Source: Candidatus Bathyarchaeota archaeon
GTDB taxonomy: Archaea; Thermoproteota; Bathyarchaeia; TCS64
Length of the DNA: 64,000 bases
Direction of reading: 5' to 3'
NCBI GenBank assembly: GCA_043826455.1
Contig: JBDRQD010000055.1
Span: forward strand, 19,380 to 83,379
Positions 33,379 through 49,649 of this stretch are shown piece by piece. Below the pieces are notes generated by a model. It was given only the letters and a program-made list of their open reading frames with translations, was not told the origin of the DNA and made no database searches. Position 1 is the stretch's first letter. Each line of letters opens with the position of its first letter. The position numbers were made by a program, and so were the translations under genes.

Positions 33379-33821
33379 TCAGTGATTCGAGCTACAAGTG
33401 GGTGGCCGCGGCTCTCCTGTGCACTACCTTCGTCTCGGGGGCCGCCGCCCTATACCTGAACAACAGGGTGAACACCCTGGAGGCGGACTACATGAAGGCC
33501 CTCAATGAGCTGGAGGAGTTTACAGTGACAGTGGACATCATGATAGACTACGGCAACGGCACAGTGGCCTGGTACAATGAGACCCGGGTCGCTGCCGGCG
33601 AGTCCCTCCTGGAAGCTTCCGGGCGGGTGGCTGAGCTGGACTACTCGGTTACCGAGTACGGGGCCTTCGTCAACGCGGTGAACGGGGTCAGCGGTGAGCC
33701 CAACAAGTACTGGATGTGGAGCTACTACGACGGGGGCTGGCAGTATGGACCCGTGGGGGCCGACCAGTGGAGGCTCCACAGCGGTGACAGGGTTGCCTGG
33801 GTCTACACGGGATTCTCATAA
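33375..33821 (+). CDS. Membrane-anchored DUF4430 / transcobalamin C-terminal-like protein
   Basis: YGAFVNAVNGV...YWMW......GA....L..GD.V.W.Y. Confidence 0.75.
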   Translation: MISDSSYKWVAAALLCTTFVSGAAALYLNNRVNTLEADYMKALNELEEFTVTVDIMIDYGNGTVAWYNETRVAAGESLLEASGRVAELDYSVTEYGAFVNAVNGVSGEPNKYWMWSYYDGGWQYGPVGADQWRLHSGDRVAWVYTGFS

Positions 33822-33852
33822 AACTTAACCGGGGCAGGGTGAATCAGAGACC

Positions 33853-34455
33853 GTGAACCCCGTCGAGACCCTCTACGCCTTGTCTGGGAAGGAGGCACCC
33901 GGCCGCTCACCGGAGTTCACTGCAGCCCACGTGCTCATGGCTCTGCGGATAATAGGGGAGCGGGGCCCGGGCAGGCAGCAGCTCTCCGCTGAGCTCCGGC
34001 TGGGGGAGGGCACCGTCAGGAACCTGCTGAGGAGGCTAACGGAGGAGGGACTTGTGTCATCCACAAGGCGGGGCGTAGCGCTGACGGCAGAGGGGGAGGG
34101 GCTGATGGACGAGCTGGGGGCGGTCATCAGGGGCAGGCCTGTTCCCAGGAGCCGGCTCACTGTGGGGGAGCACAACCACGCTGTGCTGGTGAAGGGGGGC
34201 GCCGCCGGGGTCCGTTTCGGCGTGGAGCAGAGAGACAGAGCCCTCATGTCTGGTGCGTTGGGCGCCACGACCCTGGTGGTGGAGGGTGGGGGCCTCAAGG
34301 CGCCGGCCCTTGCGGATGTGGTCGAGGAGGCTCTGAGGGACGGCATCACGGAGCTCTCTCCTGAGGACGGAGACGCCGTGATAATTGGCACGGGCGACTC
34401 CCCCTTCTGGGCGGAGATCGGAGCCCTCTCCGCTGGCCTGGAGATGCTTCGTTAG
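33853..34455 (+). CDS. wHTH-containing protein (DUF4443-like)
   Basis: GRQQLSAEL.LGEGTVR; G.EQRD.A...GA.GATTL. Confidence 0.8.
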   Translation: MNPVETLYALSGKEAPGRSPEFTAAHVLMALRIIGERGPGRQQLSAELRLGEGTVRNLLRRLTEEGLVSSTRRGVALTAEGEGLMDELGAVIRGRPVPRSRLTVGEHNHAVLVKGGAAGVRFGVEQRDRALMSGALGATTLVVEGGGLKAPALADVVEEALRDGITELSPEDGDAVIIGTGDSPFWAEIGALSAGLEMLR

Positions 34456-34465
34456 GCTGATTGGT

Positions 34466-35474
34466 CTCAATATTTTAACCCCCAAACCCAAACCCAATTT
34501 CTTTCAATTTTTTTTCTGTATTCTTTTTATTTCTCTCTTTCCATACCACTTATCATGTATATCATGTATTTCACAAAAAGTCGCGCGCAAAATAGAGTTA
34601 AATAAACCTTTTAACTATTTTTAGATCATGACTTCTGAAAAAGGGAAAACCGCGGATGAGGTCATCAAATTAACTCAAGAGTTGAAGGAATACGCTAAGT
34701 CATACAGCTCCTGGCAGACACGCGCAGACCTCGTGGGGATAATCCCAGCGGAGAGGCTTGATGAGATACCCAGCTACCGGCAAGATTGGATGAATACATC
34801 CACCATGAAAACAACGGAGCAGATGAAGGACGCCAAATCAATCATTCTCCTCGGATACCATGCTTCAGATGACATCTATGAGGTCGTTGTGAGAAAGGGA
34901 GACTCAGCACAATTCCTCGGATACCTCCCATTAGGAATAAATCAACGAGAATTAATCCGTCAACTTCAGGCCAAGGGATTCGAGGCGAAGGTGGCTGACG
35001 ATAGGCTGCCGAAGAAGCAGATGGCTAGGCTGGCGGGATTCGGCAACTATGGTAAAAACGCTCTTATAATCACCCCAAAATATGGTCCTTGGATCAGGCT
35101 AGCTGCGATTATCACCAACGCCGAGTTCGTTTACGATGAGCCGTTCGATAAGGATCTCTGCGGAGACTGCGATAAATGTGTCAAAGCCTGCCCGACTGGG
35201 GCATTGACCCCTTACAGGATTGATTATACGAAATGTCTCGTTAACCCATATGATTATGATGACTGGGCTAAACTGATCTCAGGCGAGTTAAAATTTAGTG
35301 AAAAGTTCAGCAAAACGCCAGATGTTGACACAATCTTTAGCAAGCACAGCCCGAGACTCACCGACAATTCGGTATTGATGTGCATGACCTGTCAGAGGGC
35401 TTGCCCATATGGGAGAAAAGAGCGAGGGTTAGAGAAGAAAAGTTAGGTTTGGGTTTGGGGCTCAATATTTTAAC
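34466..35474. mobile_element. Non-autonomous single-gene cassette: 14-bp direct repeats (CTCAATATTTTAAC, 34466-34479 and 35461-35474) outside perfect 15-bp inverted repeats (CCCCAAACCCAAACC 34480-34494; GGTTTGGGTTTGGGG 35446-35460)
   Basis: Repeats read directly; enclosed DNA is AT-richer than its flanks; no transposase inside. Confidence 0.8.
34628..35446 (+). CDS. Epoxyqueuosine reductase (QueG)/reductive dehalogenase-like 2x[4Fe-4S] protein
   Basis: ADLVGI, ARLAGFG.YGKN.LIITPKYGPWIRL..I.T, CGDCDKCVKACP, CMTCQRACP. Confidence 0.85.
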   Translation: MTSEKGKTADEVIKLTQELKEYAKSYSSWQTRADLVGIIPAERLDEIPSYRQDWMNTSTMKTTEQMKDAKSIILLGYHASDDIYEVVVRKGDSAQFLGYLPLGINQRELIRQLQAKGFEAKVADDRLPKKQMARLAGFGNYGKNALIITPKYGPWIRLAAIITNAEFVYDEPFDKDLCGDCDKCVKACPTGALTPYRIDYTKCLVNPYDYDDWAKLISGELKFSEKFSKTPDVDTIFSKHSPRLTDNSVLMCMTCQRACPYGRKERGLEKKS

Positions 35475-35587
35475 GCCAACCCAAATCCACATGCTCCCTC
35501 TCACACATTCACACACAAGCACATGTTAGAATTGAGCGCGTACGCTCGCTCTATTCTTAAGGGCCTCAAAAAAAGGGAAGTGGTTGT

Positions 35588-35848
35588 TTACTGGCTGAAG
35601 TAATCCATTTCTAAATGCGAAACTTTGCTATAGTCTCTTGATAGTTTCCTGCCCATCTCCATCCATTTCTCGAATGTCTCCGCCTCGAAGAAGTATGCCC
35701 AGTGATACTTCTTGTTGTGGGGGCCCCATCGTCCCATGTATTTTACTCCTGTCTCTTTACAGGCTTTCTCGACCTCTTTGTCCCACTTCTTCAGTTCTTC
35801 CATTGTTCCATCCCAGTCGATGTACTCGATAATCCTCATCTTTTTCAT
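35588..35848 (-). CDS. Hypothetical protein (possible dimeric alpha/beta-barrel)
   Basis: 86-aa ORF with its own AT-rich promoter and non-host codon usage. Confidence 0.7.
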   Translation of the reverse strand: MKKMRIIEYIDWDGTMEELKKWDKEVEKACKETGVKYMGRWGPHNKKYHWAYFFEAETFEKWMEMGRKLSRDYSKVSHLEMDYFSQ

Positions 35849-36059
35849 CCTCTCTTCTTTTTTTTATTTAAAAGAACAAATAAAAAACAATTAATTAACT
35901 ATTTAAATTTTTTTTGCGGGAGATTTAGCTATCCATCCCTCAACCCCGTGCAGAGCCTTTCGTACCCATCAAATTCCTTTTGGTTGGGCCTTAATTAATA
36001 GGGCAATCATGTGCGTAGCCGTTGGTTAATGCTAAATGGGCTGAAGTCATGTCTCATCT

Positions 36060-36509
36060 ATGTACCACTTCGGCTACGGCTCCAACCTCAACCAGGGGTT
36101 CCTGCGCCAGTACTGCCCCAGCGCAGAGTTCGTCATGAAGGCTTACCTGCCCAACTACGAGGTCCAGTTCCGGTTCTGGAGCAAGAGGCGTCAGGGGGGC
36201 ATCAGCACAATCATCGAGAAGCCGGGGAGCTTGGTCCACGGCGTCGTCTACGAGGTGCCTGAGGCGGAGCTGCTGGTTTTGGATGAGCTGGAGAGCGTCC
36301 CCCAGGGGCTCTACAGACGCGAAAAGTTCCTGGTCCTGGATGAGTGGGGCAAGTGGCAGGAGGCCGACCTGTACCGCGTCGCCGCCCCCCAGGGCCCCTT
36401 CACGCCCTCCAGGAGCTACGTGGAGCTCATGCTCACGGGGGCCCGGGAGCATGGTCTGGACCCCGGATACGTGAAGAAGATAGAGGAAATACTCGCCAGG
36501 TCAGTGTGA
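36060..36509 (+). CDS. Gamma-glutamylcyclotransferase family protein
   Basis: FGYGSNL, V.GVVY, LDELE, PS.SY...GA.EHGL. Confidence 0.9.
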   Translation: MYHFGYGSNLNQGFLRQYCPSAEFVMKAYLPNYEVQFRFWSKRRQGGISTIIEKPGSLVHGVVYEVPEAELLVLDELESVPQGLYRREKFLVLDEWGKWQEADLYRVAAPQGPFTPSRSYVELMLTGAREHGLDPGYVKKIEEILARSV

Positions 36510-45523: not shown

Positions 45524-46309
45524 CTAGCTGAGGCGCCTGTGGGTGGTGTATGCGGCTCTGGCTATGCCGTGGGCTAGCTGGAGCCTGTAGACCCAGGACT
45601 CGGGGCTCTCCTCGTAGTATTGTTTGGGGTCTACTTGTCTTCCGTCGGGGAGGGTCATGGTGCTCCTCTTGAGGTGGGTCTCCCACTCCAGGCCCTCCAC
45701 CTCCATGTAGTCTAGCTGGATGCCGTTGTGGTGGAGGATGATGGGCCACTCTGAGTCGGAGTCGAAGAACCTGCCGTGGCTGTGTTGGAGGATGGTCTCG
45801 GCTGCTTTTCTGCTGATGCCTCTTGAGGCTGCGGTGATGTCCATGTCTCTGCCCAGGATGAGGCTGAACACCTTGTTGGCCAGGGCCTCCGTCTCCGCCT
45901 GGTTCCTAGGGTGGGTGTCCATGGCCCGCCTGGTTCTACCTAGGATGAGGAAATCGTGACCAGGTATGGCTGTCGCAACCCTCTTCAGCTCCTCGGGGTA
46001 GCTGCGGGCCCAGTGGAGAGCCCTGTCCATGTCCACCAGGTGGATGAAATCTGAGCCCCGCTCCAGCGATGCTCTCAGGACACGTCGCCGGGAGTCCGTG
46101 ATGTGCTGGACGCCGACCCTGCTCCTGGGATCAACGATGATCCAGCCTTTCTCTTTGAGCGCTTCCACAACCTCTGGCATGGTTCCATCCGTCACCACGA
46201 CCAGGCGGCTGTCGTAGCACTCATCCAGCAGTTTTGCTGTCTCTGAGAGGGGTTGGAGTGTCCAGCCGGTTGAGTCGTGGAGCGTCGTGGCCAGGGATAC
46301 GGAAGGCAT
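45524..46309 (-). CDS. Hypothetical protein, possible GT-A-like fold
   Basis: LATT.HD, DMDR (DxD), GRT.RA..THP..Q..TE, D.EWP. Confidence 0.65.
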   Translation of the reverse strand: MPSVSLATTLHDSTGWTLQPLSETAKLLDECYDSRLVVVTDGTMPEVVEALKEKGWIIVDPRSRVGVQHITDSRRRVLRASLERGSDFIHLVDMDRALHWARSYPEELKRVATAIPGHDFLILGRTRRAMDTHPRNQAETEALANKVFSLILGRDMDITAASRGISRKAAETILQHSHGRFFDSDSEWPIILHHNGIQLDYMEVEGLEWETHLKRSTMTLPDGRQVDPKQYYEESPESWVYRLQLAHGIARAAYTTHRRLS

Positions 46310-46443
46310 GGGCTCAGATATGGTTGAGCCTGATTTATCTCCTATCTTTGGGTATTGCATTTTTAATATGTAAGTGAAGATATAATAACTCGAATTGGAG
46401 CCCTTAAAATATCTTGGAACAATTAAAGGCCAGATTCTAAAGG

Positions 46444-46572
46444 CTATACACGCGCGACTGTTGTCGCATACACTCTTACCCGTACTTCATTGTCCTTGGG
46501 AGTAGGTTTTTCTACCTCTTTGAGCTGAAGCACTTCGGGTGACCCATATTTTTCATATACAATCGCTTTCAT
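46444..46572 (-). pseudogene. Truncated second copy of the MDR/NAD(P)-dependent dehydrogenase N-terminus (42 aa)
   Basis: [39 protein letters not shown] then stop; nearly identical to the N-terminus of 46587-47510. Confidence 0.85.
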
Positions 46573-46586
46573 TTGAGAATCCTTCC

Positions 46587-47510
46587 TTATTGATGCTCCA
46601 AAGTTATGATTACGTTTCCCTTTTTGTGCCCTTTATCGACATACCTGTGAGCCTCAGCAATCTGCTCCAACGGGTAGCGTCTATCTATAACCGATTTTAT
46701 CTTTCCCGCCTCAATGAGCTCTTTGAGGAAAATCAGATCTTCACGTTTGGGTTCAGGGCCTGTAGTTCTAATGTAGGCTCCGTTCGGGGTTAGAGCTTTC
46801 TTGCATTTTGAAGGCGAGCTCTTACTAACCGCGTCAAAGATGAGATCATAAAGCTCTCCTCCTTCCGGAAAGTCCTCTTTGGTGTAATCAATTACCTTGT
46901 CGGCACCAAGAGATTTCACCAATTCAAGGTTCGCGGTACTGCATACACCTGTAACTTCTGCTCCAAAATGCTTGGCTATCTGTACCCCATAGGTTCCTAA
47001 ACTCCCAGAGGCCCCGTTGATGAGGACCTTTTTCCTGCTCTGGATCTTGCCCGTGTCTCTAAGAAAAACTAGTGCTGCAGTTCCCCCAGATGGAACGGGG
47101 GCTGCTTCCTCGTATGTCATGTTTGTTGGTTTTATTGCTATCATTCCGTTTTCAGGTAGACATATGTACTCTGCGTATGCACCGAAACGTAGCCCAGGGT
47201 AGGTAGATGCAAACACTTGGTCACCTACCTTGAATTGTGTTACCTTCTTACCTACTGCTTCAATTTCCCCGGATAACTCCATTCCAAGTATTTTTCGTCT
47301 TGGTTTAAAAACGCCTATAACCATTCTTCCTATGAGTCTTTCCCAGAGAGAACCAGGTACTGTGAAGCTTCGCATTCTCGCATCTCCTCGATGGACTGTT
47401 GTAGCAAATATTTTGATGAGCACTTCATTGTCCTTAGGAGAAGGTTTCTCTACCTCTTTGAGCTGTAGAACCTCCGGTGGCCCGTATTTTTCGTATACGA
47501 CTGCTTTCAT
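46587..47510 (-). CDS. NAD(P)-dependent MDR-family oxidoreductase (quinone-reductase/ADH-like)
   Basis: [37 protein letters not shown]-rich. Confidence 0.92.
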
Positions 47511-47538
47511 TTGGGCATTATTCCTTATTTTGATGTGC

Positions 47539-48237
47539 TCATTTTACCTCGTTTACTCCTGTTTTAGCAGACTCGGAAGCAATTGCAGATGAATTGAATC
47601 CTTTAACTATCAGCCATACAGCCAGAGCCATTTCTTGCAAGGCTATTGGAGCAGCTAAAATCATAAATTGATCCAAGCCAAAAAACGCTAACAACTCTGC
47701 TGGAATATACACTAATGCTCCAACAAGCCCCCAACCTGATAACCATCGAGGGACTAATTTTGATTTATATAATGCATAATTCAAAACCAGAGCAGATAGG
47801 GCAAAAGCGATTGAGGGCCCAACCCAAAAGGCCCAATCACGTGCTGCCAGCAATAATGTGCCTGAAGCTTGATAATAGGAAGCATCCAGGACTCCTGTTA
47901 CAAATTCCTTACTTAATGTCAATAGTGATAGTTGGCAGACGATGCCAAGAAAAACGAAAACGCCCTCAATGAGCCTTAGACTGAAGAATCCGAGAGCTAA
48001 GGCTTCATTATGCTTTTTCAAGATTGGGAACAGCATAACTGGGATGCCGACACATGTAAGAGCCCAAATACTTTGAACTAGCATTCCTTCCAACACTTGG
48101 CTTTCATTTGCAGCAACACTAACAAGATAATCCGGAGCATCCAGAGATCCTATAAAAAAACCAGATAAAATAGACGATACCGTGCAAGCAATAAACAATA
48201 CTCCCACAATTCTTGCGGTCATTTTGTACGAATTCAT
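47539..48237 (-). CDS. DUF4386-like membrane protein
   Basis: [31 protein letters not shown]-rich. Confidence 0.8.
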
Positions 48238-48554
48238 TTTAAAACGAGGTAACTCCCTTTTTTATGATATATAAATGTTCATGAAGCGCATATTTTTTAT
48301 AACATTATCTTAACTTCTCCGTACTTTTCCATATTTTTATTAAATAGAATTGATCAATAATGACAATAGAAAATCATTATCCGTGTTAAACGGAGCAATG
48401 ACGAATATCTAAAGTGCCTAAATCATAATAGCTCAGCACAAAATTATCTTCAACTGAACCAAGCTCTCCCCTATGTAATATAACCCCAATTATCAAGTGA
48501 AAGCAGGCGTTTTGAGGCAACGTTTTTCTTGTACCCAGCAGCCCTCATCACCTC

Positions 48555-49649
48555 ATGGGTATACCCGAGAAGATCAAACAGATCGAGGAGGAGATGCGCC
48601 GCACCCAGATCAACAAGGCCACAGAGCGGCACCTCGGGGTACTCAAGGCCAGACTCGCCAGACTCAAACGCATGCAGGAAGAGCAAGCCTCCAAAGGAGG
48701 CGGAGGCGACGACGGCTACAGCGTCAAGAAGGACGGCGACGCCACCGTGGTGCTCCTCGGCCTACCCAGCGTCGGCAAGTCCACCCTCCTCAACCACCTC
48801 ACCCGCAGCAACAGCAAGGTGGCAGCATACGACTTCACCACCCTCACAGTCATCCCCGGCATACTCAACCACAAGGGCGCCAGGGTACAAATCTTGGACA
48901 TCCCCGGCATCATCAAGGGCGCATCAGAGGGCAAGGGCCTAGGCAAGCGCGTCCTATCCGCCACCCGCAGCGCCGACCTCCTGCTGGTGATGCTGGACGT
49001 CTTCAACCCCGACGCCAAGGAGCTGCTCCTGGACGAGGTCCGCGCCATCGGCATAAGGCCCGACGCCACCCACCCCAGGGTCACAATAGAGAAGCGGTCC
49101 TCGGGCGGAGTCACCGTCACCGACCTGGTGGGCGCCACCCACGTGGACGAGGAGGGCGTCAAGCAAGTCCTCCGGGAGTACGGCCAACCCAACGCCCACG
49201 TGATGCTCCGCGAGGACATCACCTACGACCAGCTCATCGACGTCCTCATGAAGAACCGCATCTACATCCCGACGCTCACGGTGGTCAACAAGATCGACAT
49301 GGTGGACCAGAGCTACCTCACAGACCTCAAAGAGTCACTGAACTTCCCCTTCCTGCCCATCAGCGCCGACAACGACGTCAACCTAGACCAGCTCAAGGAC
49401 CAGATATTCAGGAAACTCGACTTCATACGAATATACATGATGCCCAAAGGCGAGAAACCCGACTACCAGGAACCCATGATCATCCGCAACGGCGCCACCG
49501 TGGAGGACATCGCAGACAAGGTCCACAGGAAACTCAAGGACGAGCTACGCTACACCCGCATATGGGGCAGAAGCGTCAGGTTCGGCGGCCAGAAGGTGAG
49601 CCTCACCCACCCACCCATGGACGAGGACATAATCACCTTCTACTCGTAA
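48555..49649 (+). CDS. DRG/OBG-family GTPase with TGS domain
   Basis: NKATE.H, G.PSVGKST, YDFTTL, DIPG, NKID, TGS C-terminus. Confidence 0.95.
   Translation: MGIPEKIKQIEEEMRRTQINKATERHLGVLKARLARLKRMQEEQASKGGGGDDGYSVKKDGDATVVLLGLPSVGKSTLLNHLTRSNSKVAAYDFTTLTVIPGILNHKGARVQILDIPGIIKGASEGKGLGKRVLSATRSADLLLVMLDVFNPDAKELLLDEVRAIGIRPDATHPRVTIEKRSSGGVTVTDLVGATHVDEEGVKQVLREYGQPNAHVMLREDITYDQLIDVLMKNRIYIPTLTVVNKIDMVDQSYLTDLKESLNFPFLPISADNDVNLDQLKDQIFRKLDFIRIYMMPKGEKPDYQEPMIIRNGATVEDIADKVHRKLKDELRYTRIWGRSVRFGGQKVSLTHPPMDEDIITFYS

Follow-up and report, generated by a model that had tools for sequence, protein, structure and literature searches.

A single-gene unit in a low-GC island

Between a gene for a DUF4443 HTH protein and a gamma-glutamyl cyclotransferase-like gene, the window, by which we denote the whole stretch of 64,000 nucleotides analysed from a Bathyarchaeia contig, contains a low-GC island of about 44% GC, compared with 58% for the genome. 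The island starts with a unit that carries one passenger gene, also contains a second gene of 86 codons and ends near position 36050 (Table 1). The 14-bp direct repeats, the perfect 15-bp terminal inverted repeats (TIRs) and the spacing of 981 bp between the direct repeats that had been described in a first-pass annotation were all confirmed. The reported absence of a transposase was likewise borne out, as the unit holds its single passenger gene without an enzyme of its own and no solo Cas1 is encoded inside it.

Table 1. Features of the 981-bp unit, the adjoining second unit and the host flanks, in window positions
Feature	Position	Strand	Remark
Host flank gene, DUF4443 HTH protein	33853..34455	+	outside the element
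Left direct repeat, 14 bp, CTCAATATTTTAAC	34466..34479	+	read as target-site duplication
Left TIR, 15 bp, (CCCAAA)n arm	34480..34494	+	common to Cas1-encoding elements
Sub-terminal leader	34495..34627	+	promoter-like TTAAATAAA at 34598-34606; putative promoter role
QueG-like passenger gene	34628..35446	+	272 aa/codons
Right TIR, 15 bp	35446..35460	-	perfect match to left TIR
Right direct repeat, CTCAATATTTTAAC	35461..35474	+	doubles as left boundary of second unit
Decayed left end of second, tandem unit	35475..35520	+	aligns with the end behind the L137 repeat
Second passenger gene, 86 aa, Bathyarchaeia hypothetical family	35588..35848	-	homologue lies immediately inside an L244 end
Possible decayed right end of second unit, TTTTGGTTGGG plus AT-rich core	35978..36003	-	uncertain; core about 6/14 against the repeat
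Host flank gene, gamma-glutamyl cyclotransferase-like	36060..36509	+	outside the element

The passenger gene, whose GC content is lower than that of the host, is predicted to encode a QueG/reductive-dehalogenase-like 4Fe-4S dicluster protein. Its description as QueG-like is retained, but it is not QueG proper, scoring 83.8 bits against TIGR00276 at a cut-off of 200. The overlap of its stop codon with the right TIR is real, in that the G of TAG is the first TIR base, but it is secondary, as homologues stop earlier. A codon that reads AAA in the window is a stop codon in the homologues (TAA in six and TGA in one), and in those that have an arm it begins a few bases beyond their stop. The stop of the window gene falls inside the TIR because the TAA of the homologues reads AAA here.

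As the arms are of low complexity, chance repeats or misassembly might have produced the structure. The low-GC stretch was resampled 2000 times with a first-order Markov model; 20 resamples contained an exact 14-nt direct repeat, 48 an exact 15-nt inverted repeat and none both. An assembly artefact was excluded because the junctions of the unit are spanned by contigs from three other studies (X2, 34172-34503 and 34474-35545; X4, 33633-34648; X5, 35123-35639). The core-plus-arm pattern of the ends furthermore occurs in 96 of the 401 genomes of the class at up to 16 copies per genome, while the reversed pattern, a control counted by eye, occurs in about 35 genomes at up to 4 copies. The probability left to chance or misassembly is negligible.

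No other exact copy of either repeat exists in the 2.95-Mb assembly from which the window is taken (G000), and the proposed search for the bracketing motif would yield nothing if confined to this genome, the family being visible only across genomes. A profile built from 160 ends of other genomes ranked the left end of the window 1st and its right end 2nd in G000, where it gave 13 matches above 16 bits compared with 2 for the reversed profile. Further decayed family ends were found in G000 at C30:114819, C30:115877, C73:995 and C2:3503-3545. The leader of the unit is common to the homologous units L137 and L139, and about 100 bp of it are also shared with the end at C30:114819. No Rfam family was matched. 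On the inward strand the 160 ends are G-poor for about 100 bp from the arm, with a GC skew of -0.15 to -0.18 that is near 0 beyond.

We read the island as repeat, QueG-like unit, repeat and decayed second unit, with an uncertain far end; the candidate right end is absent from the best 30 end-profile matches in G000. The same arrangement of a QueG-like unit, a shared repeat and then an end is found in L137, where a Cas1 gene lies downstream of the end that matches window positions 35475-35520. Tandems at a shared target were observed in L137, L241, L246, L292 and L327 in addition to the window.

Neither passenger gene nor an arm was found at the orthologous locus in the 17 relatives from the genus in which a single contig carries both flank genes. 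In 5 of these the flank genes are separated by 43-220 bases, and in the other 12 by about 1.0-3.6 kb containing other genes, which where read are mostly MFS-type. The island is therefore an insertion, and the possibility that orthologous loci keep the gene without the repeats, which would have spoken against a mobile unit, finds no example in these relatives. In one relative, G008, the same flank gene is followed at a distance of 20 bp by a sequence that matches the core at 12/14 and borders low-GC genes belonging to that genome. The 16 others have none, and the target may thus have been used, or been present, in two lineages. When the exact core was searched in the genus, matches were obtained in 5 of 31 other genomes, of which four looked like chance and only that of G008 lay at the orthologous place. 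This G008 locus (L021:2167-5750) contains, besides the core-like 14-mer, small low-GC genes of its own that flank an MFS gene. The window itself has another low-GC stretch at 46001-49000, in which the arm is weakly matched, with two mismatches, at 46757 and 47817.

Neither empty-site alleles nor circular-junction reads of the unit, both of which the first-pass annotation had suggested looking for, were found in contigs of four of the 24 listed runs, small-share runs being set aside, nor was a joint that skips the unit. A lone joint from 34290 to 36056 with 247 other letters between (X2) was rejected, as its contig differs at 44 of 246 letters and was read as another species.

Homologous units and a class-wide family of ends

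Of the 11 loci returned by a metagenome scan for the passenger gene, 8 are close homologues with 77-91% identity. The direct repeats of the homologous units are 13-15 bp long and differ from that of the window, and the neighbouring genes differ at every locus. L137, L138 and L139 have both (CCCAAA)n arms and each its own direct repeat, GGTTAAATTTATCCC, GGATAAGATTATGG and CGAT(A/G)ATTTTATC, respectively. In L136 the arms are decayed and the repeat is 13 bp long, L141 and L146 have one end each, and two of the 8 close homologues (L140 and L143) end in GCGCGC runs and have no arms. Of four further gene copies (G081, G064), one has a right arm and core, another is followed by a core and an arm, and the remaining two lack a clear end. 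Cas1 is encoded near the homologue in L137 and L143. Runs of GCGCGC were also seen to terminate or break genes at several loci, including a QueG-like copy and a Cas1 fragment (L140, L143, L146, L431, L460).

The Cas1 of the L137/L143 type has 1897 relatives at E<=1e-40, and 74 of its 78 loci in genome_contigs are labelled Bathyarchaeia. Among 71 near-full-length copies, arms are present on both sides in 14, on one side in 12 and on neither in 23, and the remaining 22 lie on short contigs. A direct repeat matching at 11/13 or better lies beside the arms in 13 of the 14 two-armed loci. These 13 together with two loci from genome searches, all found via Cas1, give 15 distinct Bathyarchaeia elements of 3.6-7.7 kb that have the same ends as the window unit, with ungapped TIRs of 10-98 bp, and encode an intact-looking solo Cas1. 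Cas1 is the only gene present in all 15; 14 encode a small AEP-like protein bearing a DxD motif, and a second conserved gene is found in 10. No PolB was found among the 88 non-Cas1 ORFs (at least 75 aa) of these elements, and no Cas2 or effector gene among their ORFs.

The element Cas1 proteins are 338-384 aa long, match the Cas1 domain alone in Pfam, have no C-terminal HTH and keep the catalytic residues E164, H229 and D241 invariant or nearly so; their best PDB match is 4n06 and they are nearest to type I-A Cas1. For the AEP-like product, Pfam PF24387 matched 7 of 13 members, below its cut-off, and a fold search with a model of pLDDT 84.6 gave no match at E<=0.001, with LigD polymerase domains as weak rows. 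In a quick Cas1 tree the arm-bearing elements fall into more than one clade, and arms are mostly missing from a well-supported subclade of 14 copies (L348, L351-L357, L360, L362-L365 and neighbours), which may use other ends.

In loci of 3 kb selected by the motif, this Cas1 family was present in 9 of 120 (8 places) and a tyrosine recombinase in 1 of 120, with neither in 76 controls. Close Cas1 is encoded in 54 of the 401 genomes of the class, and the bare arm reaches 26 and 37 copies. At least two end copies occur in 20 of the 54 genomes with Cas1 compared with 15 of the 347 without, a co-occurrence that was not used statistically because kin-linked genomes are not independent. Neither a Cas1 relative nor the end motif was found in viral contigs.

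The linked XerA, integrase or casposase that the first-pass annotation had asked for was thus found in part: none is linked in G000, but Cas1 is present in related elements with the same ends. Neither Cas1 nor the AEP-like gene was found in G000 (97.7% complete, 81 contigs), and on this account the unit is probably either stranded now or arrived from a neighbour. A left end and Cas1 are present in G003, a genome of the same genus.

Probable target duplication and its alternatives

Two sister genomes have the empty site with one copy of the repeat, and the direct repeat is therefore taken to be a target duplication. For L294, the sister contig G360:C7 joins both flanks with a single TTAAAATTTTTAT; for L297, G374:C28 joins them with one copy of the 13-mer at one mismatch. 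In the four relatives compared for L299, divergence was too great for an empty target to be recognised, and for L166 and L238 the flanks in relatives were diverged or not adjacent. Within the 15 elements, which were preselected at a match of at least 11/13, the two repeats are identical (13/13) in 13 and match on average at 12.8/13, while between elements the mean match is 9.4/13 and perfect in 8 of 210 pairs. The window repeat is 14 bp long; most family members have 13 bp. The targets follow a loose, AT-rich and near-palindromic consensus, and several of them appear to resemble archaeal promoter boxes.

In our assessment the 981-bp unit is highly likely to be a naturally occurring casposon that carries a gene, is non-autonomous and was moved in trans by the solo Cas1 of a PolB-less Bathyarchaeia casposon. 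It is called a non-autonomous derivative because it contains no Cas1 while 15 elements with the same ends encode one. Of the two readings that the first-pass annotation had offered, this corresponds to the cargo-carrying non-autonomous element with a long target-site duplication (TSD) and a casposase, which gained support from the same ends on Cas1 elements, the site-dependent repeats and the one-copy empty sites. The other, a Xer/dif or integron-like cassette moved by a tyrosine recombinase, was not supported: the sites score at background, no XerA reaches its cut-off in 32 genomes of the genus and a tyrosine recombinase is present in 1 of 120 motif loci, compared with 9 for this Cas1 family.

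A host Xer/dif module would be built around sites of 11-6-11 layout, which can indeed be drawn at the junctions, and the order does have conserved 11-6-11 palindromes elsewhere. Against a dif-like profile made from 45 such conserved palindromes in other genomes of the order, however, the window sites scored -2.0 and -5.4, background values attained at 651 and 2065 of 5.9 million positions. XerA above the NF040815 cut-off was found in 0 of 32 genomes of the genus, and any match at E<=1e-25 in 10 of the 32, the genomes being incomplete. The repeat moreover varies between loci, and the inner TAA/TTA motif given for archaeal dif in the accessible text of PMC11840125 is missing. A dif module is accordingly a highly improbable source of the unit. 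An earlier dif-like profile, seeded with the window sites, had drawn four palindromes on contig C68 of G000; the link to dif was dropped because the profile retrained on 45 sites did not recognise the window. Integron attC sites have the order RYYYAAC...GTTRRRY and a linked IntI. By inspection this order is absent from the window unit, which again has no Rfam family, and a tyrosine recombinase is present in the 1 of 120 motif loci given above.

Several observations on the ends do not fit plain duplication. In 51 pairs of neighbouring inward-facing ends, the cores are direct repeats in 21, both direct and inverted in 1, inverted in 4 and neither in 25, counts in which some arms are due to chance and three of the four inverted cores are near-palindromes. 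Clearly inverted cores are found in L242 and at G000 C48:235867-237163. In genus g23, one non-palindromic 13-bp core, set between mixed flanks, is present in 18 and 25 copies in two genomes and in 9, 2 and 0 copies in three others, which suggests that a core can travel or be multiplied. Inverted cores and multiplication of the g23 core keep alive a recombination explanation as well as the gene-capture view discussed below. In such an explanation, core and arms would form an att-like site of a tyrosine recombinase, or of Cas1 acting as a recombinase, and circles with one core would recombine into similar cores. Beside the inverted pairs and the lineage-constant cores multiplied next to unrelated flanks, this is favoured by the palindromic nature of the full junctions and by the circular casposon intermediate proposed in PMC10359463, which would also allow a hybrid with the casposon explanation. 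It is weakened by the 88 non-Cas1 ORFs of the 15 elements, among which no recombinase was found, by two sets of motif loci in which 1 of 120 and 0 of 20, respectively, have a tyrosine recombinase, by the joint change of both repeat halves from site to site and their equality with the empty target, and by core conservation that tracks the polarity of the core itself and not the distance from the arm. An att-like site is hence regarded as improbable, and still less credit is given to a MITE-like or passenger element with a long TSD moved by a DDE insertion-sequence transposase. The anatomy of TIR and TSD is generic, a DDE transposase gene lies inside L287 and another beside the gene in L140; yet DDE is present in 1 of the 15 elements compared with Cas1 in all 15, which were found through Cas1, and motif-selected loci are likewise enriched in Cas1. 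This makes a DDE transposase a very unlikely agent.

Further repeat structures were recorded along the way. The low-GC one-gene unit at C48:235867-237163 (L509) is bounded by a 35-bp inverted repeat that includes a family core, with arms facing outward. The g23 core (G076, G077, G082; L439-L468) forms a hub between interchangeable flanks of (TTTGGG)n, (TG)n, GC runs, poly-A/T and CTCACTTCCACC. The four 11-6-11 palindromes on C68 (831, 4557, 5732 and 7031; L053) have the consensus TTTTTGTCTCA-N6-TGAGACAAAAA and lie between genes read from their ORFs as glyoxylate-reductase-like, tdh-like and kbl-like, in some cases where two gene ends converge. Throughout the genus they are conserved at this position, and 5 of 6 genomes of family f4 have them in single copy. 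Nearby are three TTACCCTAGGGTAA-type palindromes. A conserved XerA that might read the four sites was not found. Contig C67 of G000 carries three tyrosine-recombinase genes (L047, L048, L051) and is probably an integrated element. A duplicate of about 460 bp at 88% identity, with a universal-stress-protein-like gene and its upstream region, is shared by C15:52316-52773 and C27:8741-9201.

Relation to known casposons and implications

Returning to the casposon reading, a solo Cas1 of the proposed family 5, supplied in trans, would have joined the ends of the unit to an AT-rich, near-palindromic target with an integration stagger of 13-14 nt, and repair would have duplicated the target. Since a duplicated target is itself a target, units would stack in tandem. 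We infer that Cas1 is the catalyst of end integration and that it acted in trans on the window unit, for which the mobilisation of an engineered mini-casposon (TSD-TIR-cargo-TIR-TSD) in vivo by chromosomal Cas1solo, as described in the accessible text of PMC10359463, is a precedent.

Comparison with published systems draws on the accessible parts of the papers cited. The partner Cas1 likely belongs to proposed family 5, an assignment matched by eye: the family 5 casposases Cas1_938, Cas1_1200, Cas1_1269 and Cas1_1219 (PMC9755687) resemble by eye the Cas1 of L297/L299, L305 and L298. Family 5 and the arm-bounded elements have in common that a C-terminal HTH is lacking, the catalytic residues are kept, PolB is mostly absent and the nearest relative is type I-A Cas1. 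The main text of PMC9755687, figures aside, mentions no TSD, Bathyarchaeia host, primase-like gene or non-autonomous units, and unlike the family 5 casposases the window unit is without any Cas1. Families 1-4 carry PolB (PMC9939771, PMC6563490, PMC4779613), and the unit is not a member of them. The published TSDs of 13 bp (PMC8464041) or about 14 bp with tandems (PMC4779613, PMC6563490) are of the length seen here. The family 1 casposons of Nitrosopumilus (PMC8464041, PMC6563490) are alike in a casposase of about 347 aa without HTH, a 13-bp TSD and tandem integration, and their casposase tolerates varied ends in vitro. They are unlike in a protein-primed PolB and a target that is mostly ef-2, whereas the Bathyarchaeia elements lack PolB, encode a small AEP-like product, insert at many intergenic targets and include cargo-only units. 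Family 2 of Methanosarcina mazei (PMC4779613) likewise has a 14-bp TSD and tandems with one shared TSD between, and its TSD has ATAATCTTA in common with the L146 core; it differs by PolB, HNH and an HTH-fused casposase, and its natural derivatives are reported to be solo-TIRs, not gene-carrying units (PMC4779613, PMC10359463). Acinetobacter pdif modules and archaeal XerA-dif (PMC2958812, PMC8371274, PMC11840125) resemble the unit in having single accessory genes between short palindromic-looking sites, but dif is constant and has a cognate recombinase, whereas in the present case the target supplies the repeat and XerA is not conserved. Neither a natural cargo-only casposon nor any casposon of Bathyarchaeia was found in the literature covered, which takes in few subscription journals.

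In CRISPR adaptation, Cas1-Cas2 duplicates a short target at each insertion and so builds repeat-insert-repeat arrays. The elements described here are alike in the Cas1-fold enzyme and in the short target duplicated at each insertion, but differ in that the inserts are gene-sized with TIR-like ends and no Cas2 or effector gene is present. The manner in which the unit captured its gene is something we infer; a broader view, which we hold tentatively and consider unlikely, is that family 5 casposases are a gene-capture system, in which gene-sized DNA with short low-complexity G/T-rich tails would be inserted at a 13-bp core characteristic of the lineage, with a new copy of the core made at every insertion. 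Runs of TTTGGG, TG or GC would form the tails, and the AEP-like protein encoded alongside might be what adds them. If true, this would amount to dispersed repeat-gene-repeat arrays and a living intermediate between casposon and CRISPR array, with genes as spacers.

Casposons are the proposed ancestors of CRISPR adaptation and, to our knowledge, those described are rare and self-contained. The results point to a PolB-less casposon family that is common in one abundant class of sediment archaea and that appears to move host-type genes in enzyme-free units stacking between duplicated repeats, which would be a route for accessory-gene flow in Bathyarchaeia. They would define ends, TSD and host for the barely described family 5, and the unit, with 15-bp ends and a 1-kb cargo, would offer a minimal natural substrate for testing the casposon-to-CRISPR scenario along with a compact Cas1-only integrase.
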